From positions 108,695-132,694 of the forward strand of contig DAIDAC010000001.1 of NCBI GenBank assembly GCA_027310825.1: 24,000 nt of DNA. The letters are read 5' to 3'. Position 1 is the first letter of the stretch; every line of letters begins with the position of its first letter. Below are positions 9,792-23,629 of this stretch, piece by piece. The translations under genes were made by a program, and so were the position numbers. Under the pieces are notes generated by a model, which did no database searches, was not told the DNA's origin, and worked only from the letters and a program-made list of their open reading frames with translations. The DNA comes from Candidatus Micrarchaeaceae archaeon. GTDB lineage: Archaea > Micrarchaeota > Micrarchaeia > Micrarchaeales > Micrarchaeaceae.

Positions 9792-10793
9792 ATGGATGAA
9801 AGAATAAAACTCAATAACGATTTTCGCATCGAGCTATTCGATAGTATATTGTCAAGTAACAACATCTCATTGAGACAACTAAGCAGAGAACTAGGCTGTG
9901 GTTATTCCGGATTAAAGACTTGGAGACGCGGAGAGTGTTTAATACCCAGTGATAAGTTTGACGCCATATTAAAGTTGGCAGGAATCGAGAAGACGCAAAT
10001 AGAAGACAAATTTACGAAACTGAGTTCGAATTGGGGTGCAGTTTTAGGTGGCACAGTTGCAAATAACAAACCTAAAAGACTCATAAAACAAAAAATGATA
10101 CATGCCAGAACTTTTAGAAAGAGCAAAATAAGCTTACCGAAAATAAACGTAGACGTGTGGGAATTGCTTGGTGCCTTTTTGGGAGATGGTTGCCTATCAA
10201 AAACATTCTCAAATTATGAAGGACGTTGGCTGTACCTAGCCGTTTTAACAGGGCACATGTATGATGATCTAGAATACTACAAGAACAAAATAATACCAAT
10301 AATTAGATCATTCAACAGCTATGTAAATTATCGTTTGATTCCAGAACAGACTACAATACGTATCACAATAAGGAGCAGATTGATATTTGATTTCTTGAAA
10401 GAATTAGGCATGCCAGTAGGCGAGAAAAAGGGGCAATTAAGAATTACAAAAGAGATGTTTGGTTCGCCAAATGTTGTGAAGGCGGCGATCCTGAGAGGTC
10501 TCCTTGACACTGACGGCCACATTTTCGCAAGAAAAGATGAAGATTATAAATACTTACATCTTGAAATAACAAGCGCAGATGATAGATTCCGCAAGGACAT
10601 AATAAAGTTGATCGGGGAATTTGGATTACGCGCCTATGAGCACGATACAAACGTTTTAATACGAGGAAATGCAAACGTTAGACACTGGATGAAAGCTATT
10701 GGTTCTTCGCATCCCGTACACATTAAACGTTATAATAGGTGGTTGAACACAGGAAAGCTATTACCTAAAAGGGCTCTTAGTCAAATGGTATGA
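9792..10793 (+). CDS. Double-motif LAGLIDADG homing endonuclease-like protein with an N-terminal HTH-like region
   Basis: 333 aa. LAGLIDADG motif 1 is WELLGAFLGDGCLSK and motif 2 is AAILRGLLDTDGHIFAR, about 100 aa apart as in monomeric enzymes. The N-terminus (ISLRQLSRELGCGYSGLKTWRRGE) looks like a helix-turn-helix. The gene is clearly more AT-rich than its neighbours. The last 23 nt overlap tRNA-Ala. Confidence 0.88.
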   Translation: MDERIKLNNDFRIELFDSILSSNNISLRQLSRELGCGYSGLKTWRRGECLIPSDKFDAILKLAGIEKTQIEDKFTKLSSNWGAVLGGTVANNKPKRLIKQKMIHARTFRKSKISLPKINVDVWELLGAFLGDGCLSKTFSNYEGRWLYLAVLTGHMYDDLEYYKNKIIPIIRSFNSYVNYRLIPEQTTIRITIRSRLIFDFLKELGMPVGEKKGQLRITKEMFGSPNVVKAAILRGLLDTDGHIFARKDEDYKYLHLEITSADDRFRKDIIKLIGEFGLRAYEHDTNVLIRGNANVRHWMKAIGSSHPVHIKRYNRWLNTGKLLPKRALSQMV

Positions 10794-15291: not shown

Positions 15292-16356
15292 CTACTGCGG
15301 AGGTTGTGGTGTTTGCGTGGAAGGAGGAGTTTGTGGATTGTCTCTGCCTTTCTTTATTGCGTAGTTCTCCATCTTTATTGCACGGCCCCCAAGTGCTGCA
15401 AATCTCTTGTTCGCATCGTTGTAGTTTATCTTTGTTATGTGTTCGCTTCTCTTTGTTATTATGTTGAACGGCGGGATCTTGTAAGCAATCCTGTCGTCCA
15501 TCAGTATTCGTTCGTGCTGCTCGACTGCGTCTTTGTCGTCCATGACCCGTATCTCTACGCCGATTGATGGTCCAAGCTGTGCCCTGAAGTCTGAAACGCT
15601 CTCGTTGAACTTCGAGTCAAGCATTTCCTTGCTCGTCAGCACAGATATCTTTGTGAAGTTGCTAACGCTGTTCTCTATTAATCTGTGAAGGTTGGCAAGC
15701 GCAACAGAGTTGAAGTGTTTGTCCACTATTTTAAGATGGCCGGACATGTTTGAGAAAAGCTGGTCTTGAAGATTGATCACGTTTGAGAATGGTGTGTCTG
15801 GGTTTATCGCGATGGTGTGCTTCATCTGCGGCTGCCTTCCTTCGGAAGGCTTCCTTATGATATACTGCATGTATGCATCCCCGGCAAGCGATATGGCTAT
15901 GCCAGCATATGGGAAGAACAGGTAGTTGCTGTCCAGATTCGTGTAGAAATCCGAGAGCAGAACGAACAGAAGAAGCAAGAACATGACCACCAATGCCGCG
16001 TGCAGCAGCGAGTATTTCTTTATTGTCTCGCTTGTTTTCTCTGTCCTTCTGATGAAGAACATGAATGAAACTATCATGGCCCCAAACGCGACCAGGAACA
16101 TGGCGTAGCTTTCCAATATGCCCTGATGTATCAGGCCGATGTTCAGCGCTGCCTGCTGGACAAGCGGCGCAAGAGGGACGTTCCCTGTGTAAGAGCTCTG
16201 TATTATCGCCCCTATCCCTATCCCATACAGTATGGAAAGTGTCTTGACTATGTATATCGAGCTGACCACAAGAATGAATGCTCCGAGGTTGAGCGCAGCC
16301 ATGAACATTGCGTTCTTGCTCTTGTCCTCGTCAAACCTGTATTGCGCCATAAGCAA
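15292..16356 (-). CDS. Membrane protein (4-5 N-terminal TM helices) with a ~160-aa C-terminal soluble domain, possibly PLD-fold/MIT_C-like, and a Pro/Thr/Gln-rich tail
   Basis: 354 aa, with a TATA-like AGATATATTAAGG ~20 nt upstream. The hydrophobic segments lie within aa ~17-165. The C-terminal domain reads GHLKIVDKHFNSVALANLHRLIE...ISVLTSKE...GVEIRVMDDKDAVEQHERILMDDRIAYKIPPFNII and ends PQTPPSTQTPQPPQ. It lies 11 nt upstream of sua5, so it is probably co-transcribed. Confidence 0.7.
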   Translation of the reverse strand: MLMAQYRFDEDKSKNAMFMAALNLGAFILVVSSIYIVKTLSILYGIGIGAIIQSSYTGNVPLAPLVQQAALNIGLIHQGILESYAMFLVAFGAMIVSFMFFIRRTEKTSETIKKYSLLHAALVVMFLLLLFVLLSDFYTNLDSNYLFFPYAGIAISLAGDAYMQYIIRKPSEGRQPQMKHTIAINPDTPFSNVINLQDQLFSNMSGHLKIVDKHFNSVALANLHRLIENSVSNFTKISVLTSKEMLDSKFNESVSDFRAQLGPSIGVEIRVMDDKDAVEQHERILMDDRIAYKIPPFNIITKRSEHITKINYNDANKRFAALGGRAIKMENYAIKKGRDNPQTPPSTQTPQPPQ

Positions 16357-16429: not shown

Positions 16430-16957
16430 CTATCTTTTCTTTGATATTGCGGCTCCGGCTTTTAGAATACCGAGAACAATAGCGTAACTCGATGGAGGGT
16501 TTCCTTTCACTTTCACATCAACTGGAACAATCTCGTCAACCCTGCCTGATCTGAATACATAATCGCTGTCCTTGAATAAACCTCCGGTGCATGCCCCGTC
16601 TCCTACTGCCACCACCGCCTTTGGCCTCGGCATTGCAGCATATGTCTTCTCAAGTGCAGTCTTCATGTTTATTGAAACCGGGCCTGACGCAATCAACACG
16701 TCGGCATGCCGTGGAGATGCGACAAAGTGTATTCCGAATCGTTCGCAGTCAACCTGCGGGGCATTCGCAAGCCCTTCCTCTATCTCGACATCGTTTGATG
16801 AGCCGCAGTCTATCATTCTTACTGCTATTGACCTCGAAAACAGCGAGCGCGGCCGCTTTTTCAGAAATGCTGCAAGCTCACGGATCTGCTGCGACTCGGA
16901 ATCGACAGAGATTATGTCGGATTTCGGCTTTTCGAAAAATGCAAGGAATTCGCGCAT
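16430..16957 (-). CDS. NuoB/HycG/HyfI-like small subunit of a group 4 hydrogenase-related complex, with degenerate [4Fe-4S] ligands
   Basis: 175 aa. The core ERFGIHFVASPRHADVLIASGPVS...RPKAVVAVGDGACTGGLF...IVPVDVKVKGNPP aligns with HycG/NuoB as I recall them (ERFGI..V.SPRHADVLL.TG.V...PK..I..G.C..SGG.F...VPVDVYIPGCPP). The Cys positions are discussed in findings. Confidence 0.85.
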   Translation of the reverse strand: MREFLAFFEKPKSDIISVDSESQQIRELAAFLKKRPRSLFSRSIAVRMIDCGSSNDVEIEEGLANAPQVDCERFGIHFVASPRHADVLIASGPVSINMKTALEKTYAAMPRPKAVVAVGDGACTGGLFKDSDYVFRSGRVDEIVPVDVKVKGNPPSSYAIVLGILKAGAAISKKR

Positions 16958-16986
16958 GTTTACACCAGCTACATTAACTACATTAA

Positions 16987-18552
16987 TTACAGATCTGCAC
17001 CTGAATACGATAGATTGAAACTCTTGTTTATCAGTGGGAAGTCCGGAACTATATTTGTCATTACCGCCTTCTCAAGGGCTCTCCAGTTCCTGAACGATGA
17101 AGTCCTGATCAAAAGCACGTCGATTGTGCCGTTTTTCCCAGTCCTTAGGAAGAAGGTCGACGAGCCTCGCGCTGCCTCACAGATTCCGACGCCTATCAAT
17201 CCGCTTTTTGCATTTCGCAATTTGTTGTCGATGTTTGCAGAGATCGGGCCTTTCACCCTTTTCGCGATTTCCGCGTCTATGAGCCTGACCGATTCGCGGA
17301 TCTCGTTTATTTTGACCAGTAGACGCGACAGCACATCGCCGTTCTCTGCCATGTGTTCGATGACCTTATTCGTTTTGTATGCACCGTACGGCAGATGCTT
17401 TCTTGCGTCGCAGCTGACTCCTGCGGCGCGCGCTGCTGGGCCAACCAGCGATAGCTCCTTTGCTGCCTCTTTGCTTACCCTTCCGGCGAGGAAGACACGG
17501 TCCAGGAATGTAGACGATGTAAGCGCAAGGTCCTCTATTCTGGACAGCTCCTCTGATATCGATCTCATGTCGTTTACAAGCGCCGCAATCTCTTCGGCAG
17601 AGGCTGTTTCTTCTGCCCCTCCTATCGAAATGATGTTGCGCAGGAATCTATTGCTGAATACGCCTTCATTTAATCTCATTACTTCCTCTCTCAAAGCTGC
17701 AAACCTGGCGGACACTGCGTAGAAGCCGACATCCATCGCCATGCCGCCTATATCGGCCAGATGGCTGTAGATTCTTTCGAGCTCTAGCAGCAAAAGCCTC
17801 ACCGACTCTGCCCTCTTCGGCACAGCGATGCCGAGAGCCATCTCCACAGCCTGCGCATACGCGACAGAGTTCGCCACAGATTCGTCTCCGGATATCTGCT
17901 CGATGATCGGGAATGCCTTGTCGAGCGGCTTCCCAACCAGAATCTTTTCTATCCCTTTGTGCAGGTATGACAATCGCACCTCCATCTTGTTGATCTCTTC
18001 ACCGGTAACATGGAACCTGAAGTGGCCAGGTTCTATTATGCCTGCGTGCACAGGGCCTACCGGAATCTCGAACTCGCCTTCCTTCTCCGTCCCCCTGAAG
18101 GCGTAATCCGTTTTGTAGAGCTCCTTTTGTTTTTTGGGCAGCGATGCCGATACCTTCCCCTTCAGAAGATTGTAGCTTTCCGGATGTATGACGATGGGCC
18201 TTGTATCCGAAAGCCCGAAGAACCTGATTCCTGACGTCTCAGCCATTTTCCTTTCGTCCCACATCGCAGCCGGTATTTTTCCCGATATGGAGTAGAACTG
18301 CTTTGCATGCGACCACACTATTGCGATATTTTCCAGTTTTGGAACCCGAAAAAGGTATGCGACGGTCCAGTCTTTTCCATTGGAGCTCGGATATGCGAAT
18401 GCGGAATCGAACGCTCCTCCTTTGCCGATGCAGGCATCGCACGCATCTACGATAGCGATAGGATCAGTCTCGATCCAGATCAGCGCACCGTCAGCCGATA
18501 TGCCGGTTGAATTTTTCTTGATCGATTTGATGAAATCATTTGCTCCATTCAT
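16987..18552 (-). CDS. Fused NuoC-like / NuoD-HycE-HyfG-like large subunit of a group 4 hydrogenase-related complex, lacking the NiFe-binding cysteines
   Basis: 521 aa. The N-terminal ~140 aa are NuoC/30-kDa-like (DWTVAYLFR...WDERKMAETSGIRFFG). They are followed by the hallmark FEIPVGPVHAGIIEPGHFRFHVTGEEI...RLSYLHKGIEK of energy-converting hydrogenase large subunits. The start abuts the upstream stop (TAAATG). Confidence 0.9.
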   Translation of the reverse strand: MNGANDFIKSIKKNSTGISADGALIWIETDPIAIVDACDACIGKGGAFDSAFAYPSSNGKDWTVAYLFRVPKLENIAIVWSHAKQFYSISGKIPAAMWDERKMAETSGIRFFGLSDTRPIVIHPESYNLLKGKVSASLPKKQKELYKTDYAFRGTEKEGEFEIPVGPVHAGIIEPGHFRFHVTGEEINKMEVRLSYLHKGIEKILVGKPLDKAFPIIEQISGDESVANSVAYAQAVEMALGIAVPKRAESVRLLLLELERIYSHLADIGGMAMDVGFYAVSARFAALREEVMRLNEGVFSNRFLRNIISIGGAEETASAEEIAALVNDMRSISEELSRIEDLALTSSTFLDRVFLAGRVSKEAAKELSLVGPAARAAGVSCDARKHLPYGAYKTNKVIEHMAENGDVLSRLLVKINEIRESVRLIDAEIAKRVKGPISANIDNKLRNAKSGLIGVGICEAARGSSTFFLRTGKNGTIDVLLIRTSSFRNWRALEKAVMTNIVPDFPLINKSFNLSYSGADL

Positions 18553-20019
18553 TTAACCACCGAGCAGCACAGACGCTGCAGAACTTATCGCCCCGAACAA
18601 CAGCTGCGGCGCGATTATCCCCAGGAAGACTGCAAGCGCGAACAGGGCCCATACGCAAATCAATGTTACTCTGTTCGGCGAATATCTGTGCAGTGCTCCA
18701 GCCACCTTTCCATAAACTATCTGCGAAGATTTTAGCAGCAGAGTACCAAATGATATCGTGGCGAAGACGACCAGGAATGCCAATACGATGTAGTGCTGTC
18801 CAGCGAGCGCAGCAGCTATCAGTATTATTTCTGCTATGAATGTTCCGAACGGAAATCCGCCAGCAACTCCCATATTCGCGAGTATGAACGGCAAACCAAT
18901 CGACGGAATTGTCTGTGCAACTCCGCCCATGTATGAAATCTCCTTTGCGCCATATCCGTGATTTATAATGCCCCACATGAAAAATGCAAGAGGCTTGACC
19001 AATGAGTGGGATACGATGAGGAAGATCGCCGCGAAAACGCCGAGCGGACCGCCAACTCCGAGAGCGATTGCGATTATACCCATATTCTCGACGCTGGAAT
19101 ATGCCAGAAGACGCTTGTAGTTTTCCTGGTAGTAAAGCCTCAGCGATGCAAGTGCAAGGGAGAGAAGTCCGAATGCGATCAATAGCGTAGATATGAACGA
19201 ACCTATAGCAGGAACCTGCACCCCGACAGGGTACAATCTCAATATCCCATAAAGGGCGGTGTTGAGCAGCACTCCGGAAAGCAGGGCGCTGATAGGTGTC
19301 GGCGCCTGGCTGTGCGCATCTGGAAGCCATATGTGCAACGGCGCAAGGCCCATCTTTGTCCCGTAACCGACGATAACAAATGCTAACGCGATCTTGAGGA
19401 ACAGCACATTGATCTTCGATGCGTTTGCTATCACGTCCCACCATGCAAAGCTGGGCGCAACGCCGGCCTGCTGCATTCCGTATTCCAGTATTAGCAGTCC
19501 GACCAGCGCAAGGGTGATTCCGAGAGAGCACACTATGAAATATTTCCATGCAGCCTCGACGGACTCTTTCTTGTTGTAGAAGCTTATCAAGAATACAGAA
19601 GTAAGAGTCGTCGTCTCCATGAACACCCATATCATGAGCAGGTTGGATGCCATCGACACGAAAAGAACAGACGAGAGAAAGAGCAGCAGGAACGCGTTGT
19701 ATTTGCTGATCCTGTTGCGTTCGAACGTTCCTTCTGCAGCCTCTTCACGCATGTATCCACGAGAGTAGATTGCGGCGAAGAGCGCAACCACTATTGCAAT
19801 CGCCACGAACACCACGCTGAGCGAGTCGAGGTATAGATATCCGAAAAGCCCGGCGACAGGTGTCGTCGAAAGGTTCACCGGTGATACGGTCAATATGAGC
19901 GAGATTAGCGATGCCGCGATGCCAAGTATCGCAACAGTCTCGGCTGTATCGGGCCGCTTCTTCAGCAGTAGGCAGATGACCGAAGCGATCAATGGAAACA
20001 GGATAATCAATTCGATCAT
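18553..20019 (-). CDS. HyfF/NuoN/NuoM-like antiporter-type membrane subunit
   Basis: 488 aa and polytopic. It carries the Proton_antipo_M signature LAPLHIWLPDAHSQAPTPISALLSGVLLNTALYGILR and LLAYSSVENMGII. Confidence 0.88.
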   Translation of the reverse strand: MIELIILFPLIASVICLLLKKRPDTAETVAILGIAASLISLILTVSPVNLSTTPVAGLFGYLYLDSLSVVFVAIAIVVALFAAIYSRGYMREEAAEGTFERNRISKYNAFLLLFLSSVLFVSMASNLLMIWVFMETTTLTSVFLISFYNKKESVEAAWKYFIVCSLGITLALVGLLILEYGMQQAGVAPSFAWWDVIANASKINVLFLKIALAFVIVGYGTKMGLAPLHIWLPDAHSQAPTPISALLSGVLLNTALYGILRLYPVGVQVPAIGSFISTLLIAFGLLSLALASLRLYYQENYKRLLAYSSVENMGIIAIALGVGGPLGVFAAIFLIVSHSLVKPLAFFMWGIINHGYGAKEISYMGGVAQTIPSIGLPFILANMGVAGGFPFGTFIAEIILIAAALAGQHYIVLAFLVVFATISFGTLLLKSSQIVYGKVAGALHRYSPNRVTLICVWALFALAVFLGIIAPQLLFGAISSAASVLLGG

Positions 20020-20023
20020 GGTT

Positions 20024-21631
20024 TCACCTTTCTTCGGAAAGCTGGTTCATGCGCACCGTGTCAAGGCTCGCTATCACATTGTTTATTTTGAAGAACAGCA
20101 GCAGCGCCACTGCTACCAGTATTATGACGTCGAAGATCGAGACTATTTCTTCTATTATTGGGATTTGGATTGACAGCGCGATCGGAAACAGCACAAGCCC
20201 GTTCTCGAGGACCAGGAAGCCCATAAGCTGGAGCATCACATGGGTCTTTGTCGCCATTATCAGGCCGCCAATAAGTATTATCGAGAGCGCTATCGGGAAA
20301 AGAGGGTTGCCTATGCCAAGCACGTATGATACCGAATACGACAGGAATATCAGCAGTGTTGCAAGCACCAAACTACCGACAGTGCCCACGTGCGACCTAA
20401 GGAAAAGAGGATCGGCATCTAGAACAACCTTAGAATTGCCTGCAAGGCGCCTGAATGCTGCGTATATGAGATAGGGCAGAACCATTATCTTGAATATTAT
20501 TGTTGAGACAAGCTGCAGATAAGTTCCGGCGCCGCCGTCGCTGCTGAGCACAAACAGCAATATCAGCGCAAGAAGCATGCTCTGCAATATGAATATCTCA
20601 AGCCTCCTCATGAACGTCGCGCTGAACAGGAAGTAGATCGCCGATACTAGCATTGCGACTGAAAGAACAGCTACAGGACCTATCACCTGCGGACCGTTGA
20701 AAAATCTCACTATGACGGCGAGCAGAGACAGCACAAGTGAAAATGCGAGCAGCTTTGTCACCTTGAAGAGCCTGACCTTTGGAGATATGCTTTCTATTAT
20801 CGCAGTGGAAATCGCCAGCAGCAATATTCCGGCGAATGCCATCAAACCTGAAAACAGCACATTAGACGATGAGACAAATGCATTGATCGGCAAAAACAGG
20901 ACTACGAAAAGTCCGAAGAATACGACCATCTTCGACGCATTCGCCCATTCTATGAGCGCCAACATTGGCCCGGAATACTCAAGCACCATAGCTTCGTGCA
21001 CCATGGTTAGCTCCAGATGTGTTGAAGGGTTATCGAAGGGCAGTCTGCCTGTCTCCGCAAGTATTACTATGAAGAGCGCGCCCGCAGTCAGCCAGAACGC
21101 CGGAGAGGTTGCAGTCAACTGCCAATTGAGAGATGTGGTGGATGAAACTGATGCTATGCTGCCAAATCCATTGGAGAACGAGAAAAAGATTATTATAGCA
21201 AATATCACCGGTTCAAGGAGTGCGGAGTAGAATGCTTCCCTGCTGGCGCCGATTCCGCCGAACGCGCTCCCGGCATCGAGCGCTGCAAGATACATCATGA
21301 ATCTGCCTATTGCAAAAATGTAGACGAACAGTATCAGGTCGATGGCAACGAATGTCGACTGGAATATTATTGGGAGCACGGCAGCCGCTATTATTATAGA
21401 AGCGAACAGCACAGCAGGCGCTGCCATGAATATCCAGGAGGTGGTTGAACTGACTACAGTGCCTTTCATGAACAGTTTTGCGATGTCGAAGTACGGTTGT
21501 AGTATCGGCGCGCCTCTCCTGCTTTGGGAGCGTGCCTTGATTTTGTTCATCAATCCGATAATGAATGGCGATACCGCAAAGATCAGCAACGCCTGGATTA
21601 TTGAATAGATAATACCAATTTCAGAAAACAT
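20024..21631 (-). CDS. Fusion of a HyfC/HycD/NuoH-like subunit (N-terminal ~310 aa) with a HyfE-like subunit (C-terminal ~220 aa)
   Basis: 535 aa. The N-terminal part is SPFIIGLMNKIKARSQSRRGAPILQPYFDIAKLFMKG ... LDAGSAFGGIGASREA ... LPFDNPSTHLELTMVHEAMVLEYSG, matching the NuoH/HycD pattern (R.GP...Q...D..KL..K; PFD..EAE.EL..G...EYSG). The C-terminal part is KIMVLPYLIYAAFRRL ... LQLMGFLVLENGLVLFPIAL ... IFDVIILVAVALLLFFKI, matching E. coli HyfE as I recall it (KVLLVPLIMTYAARNI; IFGYCLMENGSHLVLALL). Confidence 0.85.
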   Translation of the reverse strand: MFSEIGIIYSIIQALLIFAVSPFIIGLMNKIKARSQSRRGAPILQPYFDIAKLFMKGTVVSSTTSWIFMAAPAVLFASIIIAAAVLPIIFQSTFVAIDLILFVYIFAIGRFMMYLAALDAGSAFGGIGASREAFYSALLEPVIFAIIIFFSFSNGFGSIASVSSTTSLNWQLTATSPAFWLTAGALFIVILAETGRLPFDNPSTHLELTMVHEAMVLEYSGPMLALIEWANASKMVVFFGLFVVLFLPINAFVSSSNVLFSGLMAFAGILLLAISTAIIESISPKVRLFKVTKLLAFSLVLSLLAVIVRFFNGPQVIGPVAVLSVAMLVSAIYFLFSATFMRRLEIFILQSMLLALILLFVLSSDGGAGTYLQLVSTIIFKIMVLPYLIYAAFRRLAGNSKVVLDADPLFLRSHVGTVGSLVLATLLIFLSYSVSYVLGIGNPLFPIALSIILIGGLIMATKTHVMLQLMGFLVLENGLVLFPIALSIQIPIIEEIVSIFDVIILVAVALLLFFKINNVIASLDTVRMNQLSEER

Positions 21632-21643
21632 ATCCCCACCAAA

Positions 21644-23629
21644 CTAACCCAACACCGCAAACGCCACTACAACCGACAGCGTAAGCATGAGATAAAACAG
21701 ATAGTCGACAAGCTTGCCTGTCTGGAGCTTCCTTGACCAAGGCGCGACGAATAAGAAGGCTTTTCTTATCGGCTCGTAGATAATCTTTTCGAACAGCATA
21801 TGACCGTAGGCATCGGCCCGGCCAAGTGGATTTGCAAGTATATTGAAGCCGCGAAGTATCGGCATCGTAAAGCCCTTTGCAGAATATTGCATGTGGCCAT
21901 TTATCCCGGGCAGGCCGCACGCCCATGTTGGTCCGACCTGCTCGACAACGTGTTTTCTTTTACCGAGATATTTGATATACAACAACGTGAATGCGACTAT
22001 GGCCAGAAGGGCCACGAATATCTCAAGCATTGGGAGAGTTGACACAGTCGCGACGATGGTTGGCGCGCCGCCCATGTTCAACTGCACCAGCACAGGCGAT
22101 ATCATCCTTGCGACGACACCCGGGAAAATTCCTGCGCATATGCATGCAGCGGCGAGGATGCCCATGCCAAAGAGCATCGCCTTTGAAGGATCGCGCGCTT
22201 TCTGCACGTGTGTGCTTCGCGGGGTTCCAAGGAATGTTAGGCCGAACGCCTTTGAAAACGCAGCCACGGCGAACGCGCTAGTCAACGCAAGCGCAAGGAT
22301 GGCAGCCCCCGACACAAATGATACAAGCTTGGTGCCGCCAACGCCGCCCAAGAGCGCCACGAAGGTAAGCCATTCACTGACGAATCCGTTGAGTGGAGGA
22401 AGCGCAGCGATCGATGCGGCGCCGACAAGGAAGAGCAGCGCGGTGATCGGCATGTATTTGATTATGCCTCCGAGTTCATCGATGTTGCGCGTGTGCGCCG
22501 AAGAGGCAACCGCTCCTGCTCCGGAGAATAGAAGGCTCTTGAAAAGCGCGTGATTCATCGTATGATAAAGCGCGGCGAAGAGAGCGATAGCAGCGAGAAG
22601 TGGAAGGTTTATCGTCGTAAATATCGAAGCTGCGCCAAGGCCAAGGAATATTATCCCTATGTTTTCTATGCTGTGATAAGCGAGGAGCGTCTTCAGGTCG
22701 TGCTCCATCAGCGAATAAAGGACACCGAGGACAGACGAGACCATTCCGAGCGCGAGAAGGACAAGGCCCCACCAAAGAGGTATGGTGCTGCCCAAAAGGA
22801 ATCCGAACACAACGCGTACAATCCCATAGATTGCGGTCTTCAGCATTATTCCAGACATGAGCGCAGATATGTTGCTAGGCGCCTGTGGGTGCGCGACCGG
22901 AAGCCAGATGTGGAACGGCATGACTCCGGATTTTATTCCAAAGCTTATCAATGCAAAAATGAATATCACAGCGGCAACGGCTGGCGCGTATTGCGCGCTT
23001 GAAAACGCGCTGAAATCCGCAGAGAAGTTTGCACCAGACGCGAGCGCGATGAACATTACTATAAGGCACAATGTTCCGAAATGCGTCATTAGCAGATACG
23101 AAAGCCCTGCGCTCTTGGTGGAATCTTCCTTATGTTCGAATGAAACAAGATAGTAAGATGAGAGGGCCATCAGTTCCCAGAAGACGATGAATGCAATCGC
23201 ATTCTGCGCAGTAACGACCATCGCGATCGAAAGCAAAAAGAGGTTGAACAGGAAGATGAAGCGCGGTATGCTGTATCCTCTGCGCGCATATTCGCCGACG
23301 TAGCCGAACGAGTAAATTGATACCGACAAAGTCACGAAGCCGATAAATGCTATGAAGAAGCCGGAGAGGGCATCGACGCCGAATCCGATCGTTCCGAGAA
23401 TCGGCACCACCGCAATCACCATCTTTGAGATTTGGAGGCCGAGAAGTGCGCTTATTCCGGCGGCCATTAGAGAGAGGCTAGCCAGTGACGCAGACAGAAG
23501 CCCTACGAGTTTGGAATATTTCCAGTTCTTGACCAGGAAAGCGGATAGCATTCCGAATGCATAAAACAACACGGAGAGCCACAAAAGCCCGGCTGTGCTT
23601 CCAAGAATGCTTAGTAGATATTGTTGCAT
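21644..23629 (-). CDS. HyfB/HycC/NuoL-like antiporter-type membrane subunit
   Basis: 661 aa and polytopic. It has the signature MPFHIWLPVAHPQAPSNISALMSGIMLKTAIYGIVR and LLAYHSIENIGIIFLGLG. Its size is close to E. coli HyfB. It is the first gene of the cluster, with GGGAGAT SD-like sequence adjacent to the ATG and AT-rich TATA-like sequences 45-70 nt upstream. Confidence 0.9.
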   Translation of the reverse strand: MQQYLLSILGSTAGLLWLSVLFYAFGMLSAFLVKNWKYSKLVGLLSASLASLSLMAAGISALLGLQISKMVIAVVPILGTIGFGVDALSGFFIAFIGFVTLSVSIYSFGYVGEYARRGYSIPRFIFLFNLFLLSIAMVVTAQNAIAFIVFWELMALSSYYLVSFEHKEDSTKSAGLSYLLMTHFGTLCLIVMFIALASGANFSADFSAFSSAQYAPAVAAVIFIFALISFGIKSGVMPFHIWLPVAHPQAPSNISALMSGIMLKTAIYGIVRVVFGFLLGSTIPLWWGLVLLALGMVSSVLGVLYSLMEHDLKTLLAYHSIENIGIIFLGLGAASIFTTINLPLLAAIALFAALYHTMNHALFKSLLFSGAGAVASSAHTRNIDELGGIIKYMPITALLFLVGAASIAALPPLNGFVSEWLTFVALLGGVGGTKLVSFVSGAAILALALTSAFAVAAFSKAFGLTFLGTPRSTHVQKARDPSKAMLFGMGILAAACICAGIFPGVVARMISPVLVQLNMGGAPTIVATVSTLPMLEIFVALLAIVAFTLLYIKYLGKRKHVVEQVGPTWACGLPGINGHMQYSAKGFTMPILRGFNILANPLGRADAYGHMLFEKIIYEPIRKAFLFVAPWSRKLQTGKLVDYLFYLMLTLSVVVAFAVLG

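Follow-up and report, generated by a model that had tools for sequence, protein, structure and literature searches.

What does a complex do that has kept the frame of a membrane-bound hydrogenase and seems to have given up every site at which electrons could arrive or react? This question is raised by a stretch of 24,000 nucleotides (nt) from Candidatus Micrarchaeaceae archaeon (GenBank assembly GCA_027310825.1, contig DAIDAC010000001.1, positions 108,695 to 132,694 of the forward strand), hereafter called the window, in which five tightly spaced minus-strand genes with intact reading frames (16430-23629) make up one operon. In order, these genes encode a HyfB-like protein, a HyfC-HyfE fusion, a HyfF-like protein, a large subunit and a small subunit, and this order is conserved across the loci that were sampled. 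The complex almost certainly belongs to the Ehr (“Ech-” or “energy-converting hydrogenase-related”) family. Its large subunit (EhrL; 16987..18552, minus strand; 521 amino acids (aa)), in which a NuoC-like domain is fused to a HycE/NuoD-like domain, has none of the four cysteines that bind nickel and iron in a [NiFe]-hydrogenase. The loss of these cysteines is itself already known for Ehr, to which the Micrarchaeota complex is an added member. What is more unusual is that the adjacent NuoB/HycG/MbhJ-like small subunit (16430..16957, minus strand; 175 aa) has neither iron-sulfur (Fe-S) ligands nor an N-terminal ferredoxin domain.

The former nickel-iron site

The ligand columns of the large subunit were set by phmmer searches against all chains of the Protein Data Bank (PDB) and by MAFFT alignment with HycE, and both agree that the four NiFe cysteine columns are occupied by S221 (17890-17892), E224 (17881-17883), S515 (17008-17010) and G518 (16999-17001). 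This bears out the original prediction, made from the letters of the window, that the cysteines had been replaced by Ser, Glu, Ser and Gly with their spacing kept. At the N-terminal motif, the HycE columns R-V-C-G-I-C-G-F-A-H read Q-I-S-G-D-E-S-V-A-N in the query, leaving no RxCGxCx3H motif, and phmmer pairs “isgdesvansvay” with “vcgicgfahstay” of HycE. In this alignment, S221-G-D-E224 (17881..17892, minus strand) stands in place of C-G-x-C, and the downstream histidine of CGxCxxxH is N228 (17869-17871), an asparagine that is typical of the “E-type” subgroup that includes the query. The prediction had placed this region at 17866-17901, which is slightly off, as that range encodes EQISGDESVANS and the 18-residue stretch ISGDESVANSVAYAQAVE is encoded by 17842-17895 (minus strand).

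At the C-terminal motif, the HycE columns D-P-C-Y-S-C-T-D-R read N-L-S-Y-S-G-A-D-L followed by the end of the protein, with “nlsysgad” paired to “dpcysctd” by phmmer. No DPCxxCxxR/H motif is present, and N513-L-S515-Y-S-G518-A-D520-L521 (16990..17016, minus strand) forms the C-terminus in place of D-P-C-x-x-C-x-x-R. Here the predicted range was exact, with 16990-17025 encoding precisely KSFNLSYSGADL and the stop codon at 16987-16989. The protein ends three residues past G518, at the position of HycE ...CTD-R, which we take to be the mature C-terminus after HycI cleavage, and has no C-terminal extension.

The large subunit contains four cysteines in all (C38, C41, C381 and C458), none of which falls in a ligand column and none of which is conserved beyond Micrarchaeota. 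The DACDAC pair (C38 and C41) and C381 were considered as substitute ligands and rejected, as they lie outside the ligand columns and are conserved in Micrarchaeota only. Sequencing error was rejected as the source of the substitutions on two counts: 11 contigs carry the identical protein, among them contigs of two NCBI assemblies and of one independent Sequence Read Archive run assembly (one copy sits on contig DAIDBM010000018.1 of GCA_027310105.1), and homologues share the substitutions. Cysteines in the ligand columns and errors in these codons had been named beforehand as the two grounds for abandoning the claim, and neither was found.

The scaffold around this site is still that of a hydrogenase, as had been proposed. 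An AlphaFold2 model of the large subunit, built from 50 homologues, has a mean predicted local distance difference test (pLDDT) of 89.1 and a predicted template-modelling score (pTM) of 0.92. Its best fold match is HycE (7z0s_E), with template-modelling scores of 0.90/0.88, above the NuoCD chains of Aquifex and E. coli complex I. The same chain comes first in the phmmer search (E 6.6e-54, 186 bits, residues 83-520), with Thermus Nqo4 (E 2.7e-39, 138 bits) and Pyrococcus MbhL (E 5.2e-39) lower, making HycE the best solved homologue of the query in both sequence and fold. Pyrococcus MBS/Mbx, which is also hydrogenase-derived and has a large subunit that no longer binds Ni-Fe, is a weaker match (E 6.8e-22) than HycE or MbhL; MBS reportedly keeps three [4Fe-4S] clusters and reduces polysulfide.

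Conservation and origin of the replaced pocket

The original prediction held that conservation of the replacement residues would point to a new functional site rather than to decay, and this conservation is present. In a collection of 5.8 billion proteins, the 120 closest large subunits all carry S(A)-G-D-E and N-[LM]-S(A)-Y-[SA]-G-x-D-[LMVG]-end, save two truncated sequences without the C-terminal columns, and alanine replaces serine in two of them. The Micrarchaeota members of this set are 45-67% identical to the query and are followed by Methanosarcina, Thermoplasmatota, Woesearchaeota and Dehalococcoidales at ~40%. When one genome per species was scanned for homologues, at least 595 genomes proved to contain relatives, and the best 80 loci were analysed. 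This sample spans archaea and many bacterial phyla, including Nitrospirota, Thaumarchaeota and the candidate phyla radiation (CPR), and the Geobacter EhrL and EhrS are not among its aligned sequences. S-G-D-[E/S/T/N] and N-K-S-x-N-L-S-Y-[S/A]-G-x-D-end occur in 82 of 83 large subunits from these 80 bacterial and archaeal genomes, the exception being a true CxxC/CxxC hydrogenase. Read across the best 80 loci, the ligand columns are SSSG (30), SESG (25), STSG (17), AESG (4), SNSG (4), ATSG (2), STSA (1) and CCCC (1). Tandem pairs of complete Ehr operons in one genome were seen at three loci (L015, L076 and L079; Verrucomicrobiia and Nitrospirota), and the paired operons differ in large-subunit motif, for example SGTS versus SGDT.

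In an alignment of 50 homologues, G222, D223 and E224 never vary, S221 is kept in at least 90% of the sequences, and N513, Y516, G518 and D520 are likewise invariant. Residues of the hydrogenase shell are also retained and invariant, namely E174 and H177 (EPGH motif) and R462 (EAxRG motif). Despite overall identities of 38-67%, the pocket residues and the loop G166-F180 show little or no variation; columns 166-174 and 176-180 are invariant and P175 is at least 90% conserved. The core of this loop, P167-V-H-A-G-I-I-E-P175 (18028..18054, minus strand), covers the only internal segment of the AlphaFold2 model with a pLDDT below 50 (residues 167-175) and aligns with the beta1-beta2 loop of complex I NuoD. 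That loop of NuoD is mobile during complex I turnover; the parallel is noted here and nothing further is claimed from it.

This conservation argues that the replaced pocket is under strong purifying selection and is a functional site rather than a product of decay. A decaying hydrogenase relic or pseudogene without function would account for the loss of every catalytic and electron-transfer ligand. It would have to be reconciled, however, with five intact and tightly spaced reading frames, with replacement residues that are invariant in bacteria and archaea at 36-67% identity, with an identical protein in several independent assemblies and with a predicted fold of high confidence, and is extremely improbable.

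The origin of the pocket is indicated by the single CCCC sequence, that of L047 from a Peptococcaceae metagenome-assembled genome (MAG), which is basal to all others in a rough neighbour-joining (NJ) tree of large subunits rooted on HycE and drawn without support values. Its large subunit reads ERVCGACSASH ... LINKSFELCYACLDR-end. Unlike the query, this true [NiFe] relative keeps all four NiFe cysteines, the CGxCxxxH histidine, four small-subunit cysteines and a fused ferredoxin domain, and it is like the query in operon order, in C-terminal context and in the lack of an extension. Because CCCC occurs in this basal sequence together with an unchanged operon order and C-terminal context, we conclude that the Ehr family descends from a true Hyf/Hyc-type group 4 [NiFe]-hydrogenase rather than from NuoD. 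Descent from a hydrogenase had been predicted, and it is further supported by the higher score of HycE over Nqo4 and by membrane subunits whose best matches are to HyfB, HyfC, HyfE and HyfF, all below curated cut-offs. The absence of the C-terminal extension is older than the loss of the metal site, since the basal true hydrogenase has none either. The prediction was therefore right that the protein stops at the motif, and the missing extension cannot be used as a diagnostic of the lost site.

The label that Pfam and NCBIfam give to the large subunit is NuoD/49-kDa, and a passage of PMC4758237 that cites Marreiros 2013 calls Ehr a missing link to complex I. Both would suit a complex-I-like reductase of quinone or of another membrane carrier, representing a step towards NuoD. 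Against such a reductase, HycE outscores any NuoD and the cysteines of the N2 cluster are absent. In addition, the columns of Thermus Nqo4 Tyr87 and His38, which are presumably quinone-site residues, hold G222 and I173 in the query when counted along the ungapped phmmer alignment. We give a quinone reductase next to no credence.

Ehr has been defined by group-4-like large subunits without CxxC motifs (PMC6349859, PMC7304191, PMC10284858). The family has been reported in Geobacter (GSU0739-45; PMC7894505), in Margulisbacteria, Saganbacteria and Melainabacteria (PMC6349859), in CPR (PMC7304191), in comammox Nitrospira, where it was placed beside group 4f (PMC10284858), and in ammonia-oxidising archaea (PMC10432482), and its function is stated as unknown in PMC7894505, PMC6349859, PMC7304191, PMC10284858 and PMC10432482. 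The subunit lists in Supplementary Note 4 of PMC6349859 and in PMC7894505 match the query operon, in which a NuoB-like small subunit, a NuoH-like, a HyfE-like and two antiporter-like subunits cluster with the large subunit. As in published Ehr, this large subunit is group-4-like without the NiFe CxxC motifs. SGD[ESTN] and NLSY[SA]GxD-end are shared with the sampled Nitrospirota, Thaumarchaeota and CPR members, and these common motifs therefore tie the query to published Ehr cases. A passage of PMC8561730 cites Kadnikov 2020 for a “group 4e [NiFe] hydrogenase” in a Micrarchaeota, which is not equated here with the query cluster.

Loss of the electron-transfer wire

In the small subunit, the columns of the four cysteines that bind the proximal/N2 [4Fe-4S] cluster hold S54, V57, G121 and N153, as placed by phmmer alignment to MbhJ, HycG and mitochondrial PSST and by MAFFT; this second loss had not been noticed in the original prediction. 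All 67 small subunits of the Micrarchaeota type in the protein collection have [S/P]-V-G-N in these columns, and their GS[SP]NDVE[IL]EE, AAGDGAx and PGNPP motifs are very well conserved. Two leftover cysteines lie nearby in Micrarchaeota small subunits and are variable (C/A and C/V/I), so an alternative ligand set is not present there. Across the wider sample, all four small-subunit cysteines are kept in 65 of 80 loci. Those long Ehr small subunits that were inspected (236-349 aa) begin with a 2x[4Fe-4S] ferredoxin domain, and a NuoB-NuoI fusion has already been recorded for Ehr (PMC6349859, Supplementary Note 4). The query thus differs from the common form of Ehr, in which the small subunit has four cysteines and often a fused NuoI-like 2x[4Fe-4S] domain: the query and its relatives are short (~175 aa) and have neither, and HyfC and HyfE are fused. 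Retention of the Fe-S ligands is a trait of most Ehr members and not a published definition of the family.

The surroundings of the query operon that were analysed comprise the window and, in the source contig, the gene with 10 kb flanking it at each end. A CxxCxxCxxxC motif is absent from every frame of the window, and neither the operon nor the 10 kb on either side in the source contig contains any ferredoxin, Fe-S or molybdopterin gene or Pfam domain. Over the whole of this region, hyp maturation genes are likewise absent. With no NiFe ligands, no cluster cysteines and no ferredoxin, the operon, as judged from its sequence, has no site that can be recognised as binding Ni-Fe or any Fe-S cluster, and the complex very likely contains no redox cofactors.

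HycE binds Ni-Fe by four cysteines and has a C-terminal extension that is cleaved, HycG binds a [4Fe-4S] cluster, and HycF and HycB are ferredoxins. The query complex is without all of these cofactor sites, and its resemblance to E. coli formate hydrogenlyase/hydrogenase-4 (PDB 7Z0S) lies in the NuoC-NuoD-fused large subunit and the Hyf-type membrane subunits. From the missing NiFe ligands, cluster cysteines and ferredoxin domain or subunit, we infer that the complex can act neither as a hydrogenase nor as a conventional oxidoreductase. The relic, true-hydrogenase and quinone-reductase readings are effectively excluded.

Small subunits without Fe-S ligands (FeS-less) are found in other lineages with other residues in the same columns. 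These are D-[T/P/A]-D-N in methanogens, Bathyarchaeia, Dehalococcoidales, Moduliflexus, Woesearchaeota and Thermoplasmatota, T-C-D-D in CPR and S-E-G-D in a Bdellovibrionales MAG. In the NJ tree, the FeS-less lineages form ~3 clades that are interleaved with cluster-retaining ones, which suggests that the Fe-S ligands were lost repeatedly. In the literature searched, which did not include Coppi 2005, Marreiros 2013 or Kadnikov 2020, there was no account of an Ehr fully without Fe-S ligands, of repeated loss or of insertion into an ATP synthase operon.

The complex could still be an oxidoreductase if it were fed by a partner encoded elsewhere, such as a formate dehydrogenase (FDH), or if it held clusters through ligands other than cysteine. 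The full Fe-S wire is kept by most Ehr, an FDH-Ehr partnership has been hypothesised for bacteria (PMC6349859), in Geobacter the Ehr subunits reach higher abundance on formate (PMC7894505), and the acidic residues of the methanogen-type columns (D, T/P/A, D, N) could in principle bind metals. In the query clade, however, the columns hold S/P, V, G and N, which are implausible as cluster ligands, and the two nearby cysteines vary. No ferredoxin domain is present, no Fe-S or molybdopterin gene accompanies the operon in the surroundings described above, and a small subunit without a cluster leaves no known route from a donor to the pocket. For these complexes, an oxidoreductase is very improbable.

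In the public databases, Micrarchaeota proteins of this type (P0006, P0009, P0046, P0129, P0136 and P0140) are named “hydrogenase large subunit”, “nickel-dependent hydrogenase large subunit”, “membrane-bound hydrogenase subunit alpha/mbhJ” and “formate hydrogenlyase”. Such names overstate the capability of these proteins, and H2 metabolism inferred for DPANN archaea from these genes is unsupported.

Ion translocation and genomic setting

The remaining three genes of the operon encode its membrane part. The first (21644..23629, minus strand) encodes a HyfB/NuoL-like antiporter-type subunit of 661 aa (Pfam Proton_antipo_M, E 3.8e-47), with hydrogenase 4 subunit B as its best NCBIfam match (E 4.9e-175; 583.8 bits, below the curated cut-off of 667 bits). 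The second (20024..21631, minus strand) encodes the fused HyfC/NuoH-like and HyfE-like subunit of 535 aa, in which Pfam NADHdh covers residues 12-308 (E 1.5e-36) and residues 320-531 have a weak NCBIfam HyfE match (E 2.4e-7; 30.8 bits, below the cut-off of 136 bits). This fusion (535-549 aa) is present in every Micrarchaeota locus examined, and the two parts are separate genes in most of the 80 loci. The third (18553..20019, minus strand) encodes a HyfF/NuoN-M-like antiporter-type subunit of 488 aa; NCBIfam matches it best to hydrogenase 4 subunit F (E 2.1e-106; 356.9 bits, short of the cut-off of 610 bits), and its best PDB match is MbhH. An open reading frame (ORF) of 101 aa (21621-21926, minus strand) runs in another frame, almost entirely inside the HyfB-like gene at its 3' end, and reaches into the start of HyfC-HyfE; it matches no family, is missing from the gene calls of the source contig and is probably spurious.

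Residues of the antiporter type are well preserved in two of these proteins. E152, K233, K264, H356, H360, K364 and E419 of the HyfB-like subunit are conserved in 65-70 of 70 family members, and E135, K222, H338 and K342 of the HyfF-like subunit are conserved in 79-80 of 80 sequences, with E or K at position 397. These Glu, Lys and His residues are kept in FeS-retaining and FeS-less operons alike. Mrp antiporters are built from MrpA-G and have no NuoH-, NuoD-, NuoC- or NuoB-like subunits, whereas the query operon includes genes of the NuoH, NuoCD and NuoB types and lacks MrpB, MrpE, MrpF and MrpG. With the Mrp Na+/H+ antiporter and the Mrp-like module of MBH/MBS (PDB 6CFW, 6U8Y, 7QRU, 6Z16), the query shares the Glu of transmembrane helix 5 (TM5), the Lys of TM7, the His/Lys of TM11 and the Glu/Lys of TM12. 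Mrp is also like the query in having no redox cofactors, and the resemblance is one of function and not of membership.

Some FeS-less operons lie among genes for the ATP synthase. In a Woesearchaeota genome (L091 1-10737; GCA_016181325.1, JACOZO010000002.1), the six genes of a complete FeS-less Ehr operon sit between atpA-atpB and atpD of an A-type ATPase, with intergenic gaps to the ATPase genes of 27 and 16 nt. In the CPR-like bacterium DBS2-1.bin163 (L048 7-9368), F-type atpG-atpD-atpC are followed directly, on the same strand, by an Ehr operon that begins with a small subunit without Fe-S cysteines, and at a FeS-less locus of Daviesbacteria (CPR) ATPase genes lie ~5 kb off. No ATPase genes were found beside 64 FeS-retaining loci. 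Beyond close relatives, clustering of the ORFs that flank FeS-less operons yielded nothing in common.

We tentatively regard the Micrarchaeota complex as a redox-independent H+/Na+ translocator of the Mrp-antiporter type, a reading whose chances we judge to fall somewhat short of even. The Ni-Fe pocket has been rebuilt into a conserved polar pocket (S221, D223, E224, S515, Y516 and D520), and in the Micrarchaeota lineage the electron wire has been lost as well. The soluble arm may have been kept as a cap, a gating module or an ion- or proton-binding module over the NuoH-like channel, and the translocator could work alongside the ATP synthase/ATPase to control ion gradient and pH in an archaeon with a small genome. 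Several points weigh against this reading. We infer the function from absent features and from gene neighbourhoods in other genomes, and there is no ATPase gene within 10 kb in the query genome. In TM8 of the HyfF-like subunit, Asn takes the place of the Lys of MbhH and MbsH, and the NJ tree behind repeated Fe-S loss has no support values. A plain antiporter role does not obviously account for the invariance of the former active-site pocket, and this pocket is common to FeS-retaining Ehr, which suggests substrate chemistry there.

In the main rival reading, the pocket would be a non-redox catalytic site whose acid-base chemistry is coupled to ion translocation, for example in vectorial CO2 hydration or dehydration, for which cyanobacterial NDH-1 CupA/B and DabA/DabB would be analogues. 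The Ser, Asp, Glu, Tyr and Arg of the pocket are invariant even where electrons cannot arrive, and carbonic anhydrase adjoins some FeS-less operons and none of the 64 FeS-retaining loci. FeS-less operons of Methanospirillum, Methanoregula and three Micrarchaeota genomes have genes for beta-carbonic-anhydrases or similar proteins (CxDxR...HxxCG) as immediate neighbours (L010 3675-4325, L012 2876-3457, L081 12111-12977, L090 10116-11003 and L082 12096-12965). The Methanospirillum and Methanoregula genes match Pro_CA with E 3e-46 and 9e-48, respectively. Two of the Micrarchaeota genomes hold one Pro_CA match of 31.5 bits (above cut-off) and its homologue, and the third holds a CxDxR...HxxCG protein. 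These genes are, however, on the opposite strand and outside the operon, and they occur at ~5 of ~27 FeS-less loci, amounting to 2-3 independent arrangements, and are absent from most other FeS-less loci examined. In the query genome, tblastn and Pfam revealed no carbonic anhydrase across the window and the 10-kb flanks. The pocket shows no obvious Zn-ligand set, and adjacency could reflect shared pH homeostasis. The vectorial carbonic anhydrase systems (DAB and NDH-1 Cup) also have a gene for a dedicated carbonic-anhydrase-like subunit, whereas none accompanies the query operon. A catalytic pocket of this kind draws thin support from the neighbouring carbonic anhydrases and is improbable.

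There is a further reading, on the unlikely side in our view, in which FeS-less Ehr of Micrarchaeota, Woesearchaeota, several methanogens, Bathyarchaeia, Dehalococcoidales and CPR would form a distinct ion-motive class and not just Mrp-like antiporters. Its members would couple a non-redox event in the pocket (binding of a ligand, a proton, CO2/HCO3- or a cation) to ion translocation. As descendants of membrane-bound hydrogenases, they would have lost all redox cofactors, probably more than once, and have kept an invariant re-tooled site and a conserved mobile loop, and they would be wired into the ATP synthase operons of ultra-small symbionts. If such a class exists, the conformational coupling engine of complex I would be isolated in it from electron-transfer chemistry.

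In the FeS-less variants, the conserved pocket, whatever its role, is kept under selection without any electron input. Taken together with the linkage to ATP synthase genes, this narrows the hypotheses for Ehr to ion or proton handling. A redox-free machine of the complex-I/MBH type would be a clean system in which to study how a pocket and mobile loop in the soluble arm are coupled to antiporter subunits. A FeS-less variant is also present in Methanosarcina, a genus with genetic tools, where the question is open to direct testing.

The window (GC content 48%) is archaeal and also carries genes for Trm1, an archaeal CCA-adding enzyme and Sua5. Within 10 kb, the query operon is flanked by NUDIX, a DsbH-like thioredoxin, a 2-oxoacid dehydrogenase, Sua5 and a 352-aa protein of unknown kind. 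The small-subunit gene is immediately followed, on its own strand, by an ORF of 354 aa (15292-16356, minus strand), whose N-terminal half is hydrophobic and membrane-spanning by eye and whose C-terminal half is soluble with a Pro/Thr/Gln-rich tail. It was considered as a conserved Ehr component and rejected, with no homologue in the 80 related loci or among the other type-2-locus neighbours examined and no Pfam match. Elsewhere in the window, a free-standing ORF of 333 aa (9792-10793, plus strand) between the genes for the CCA-adding enzyme and an MFS transporter contains a LAGLIDADG_3 homing-endonuclease-like domain.

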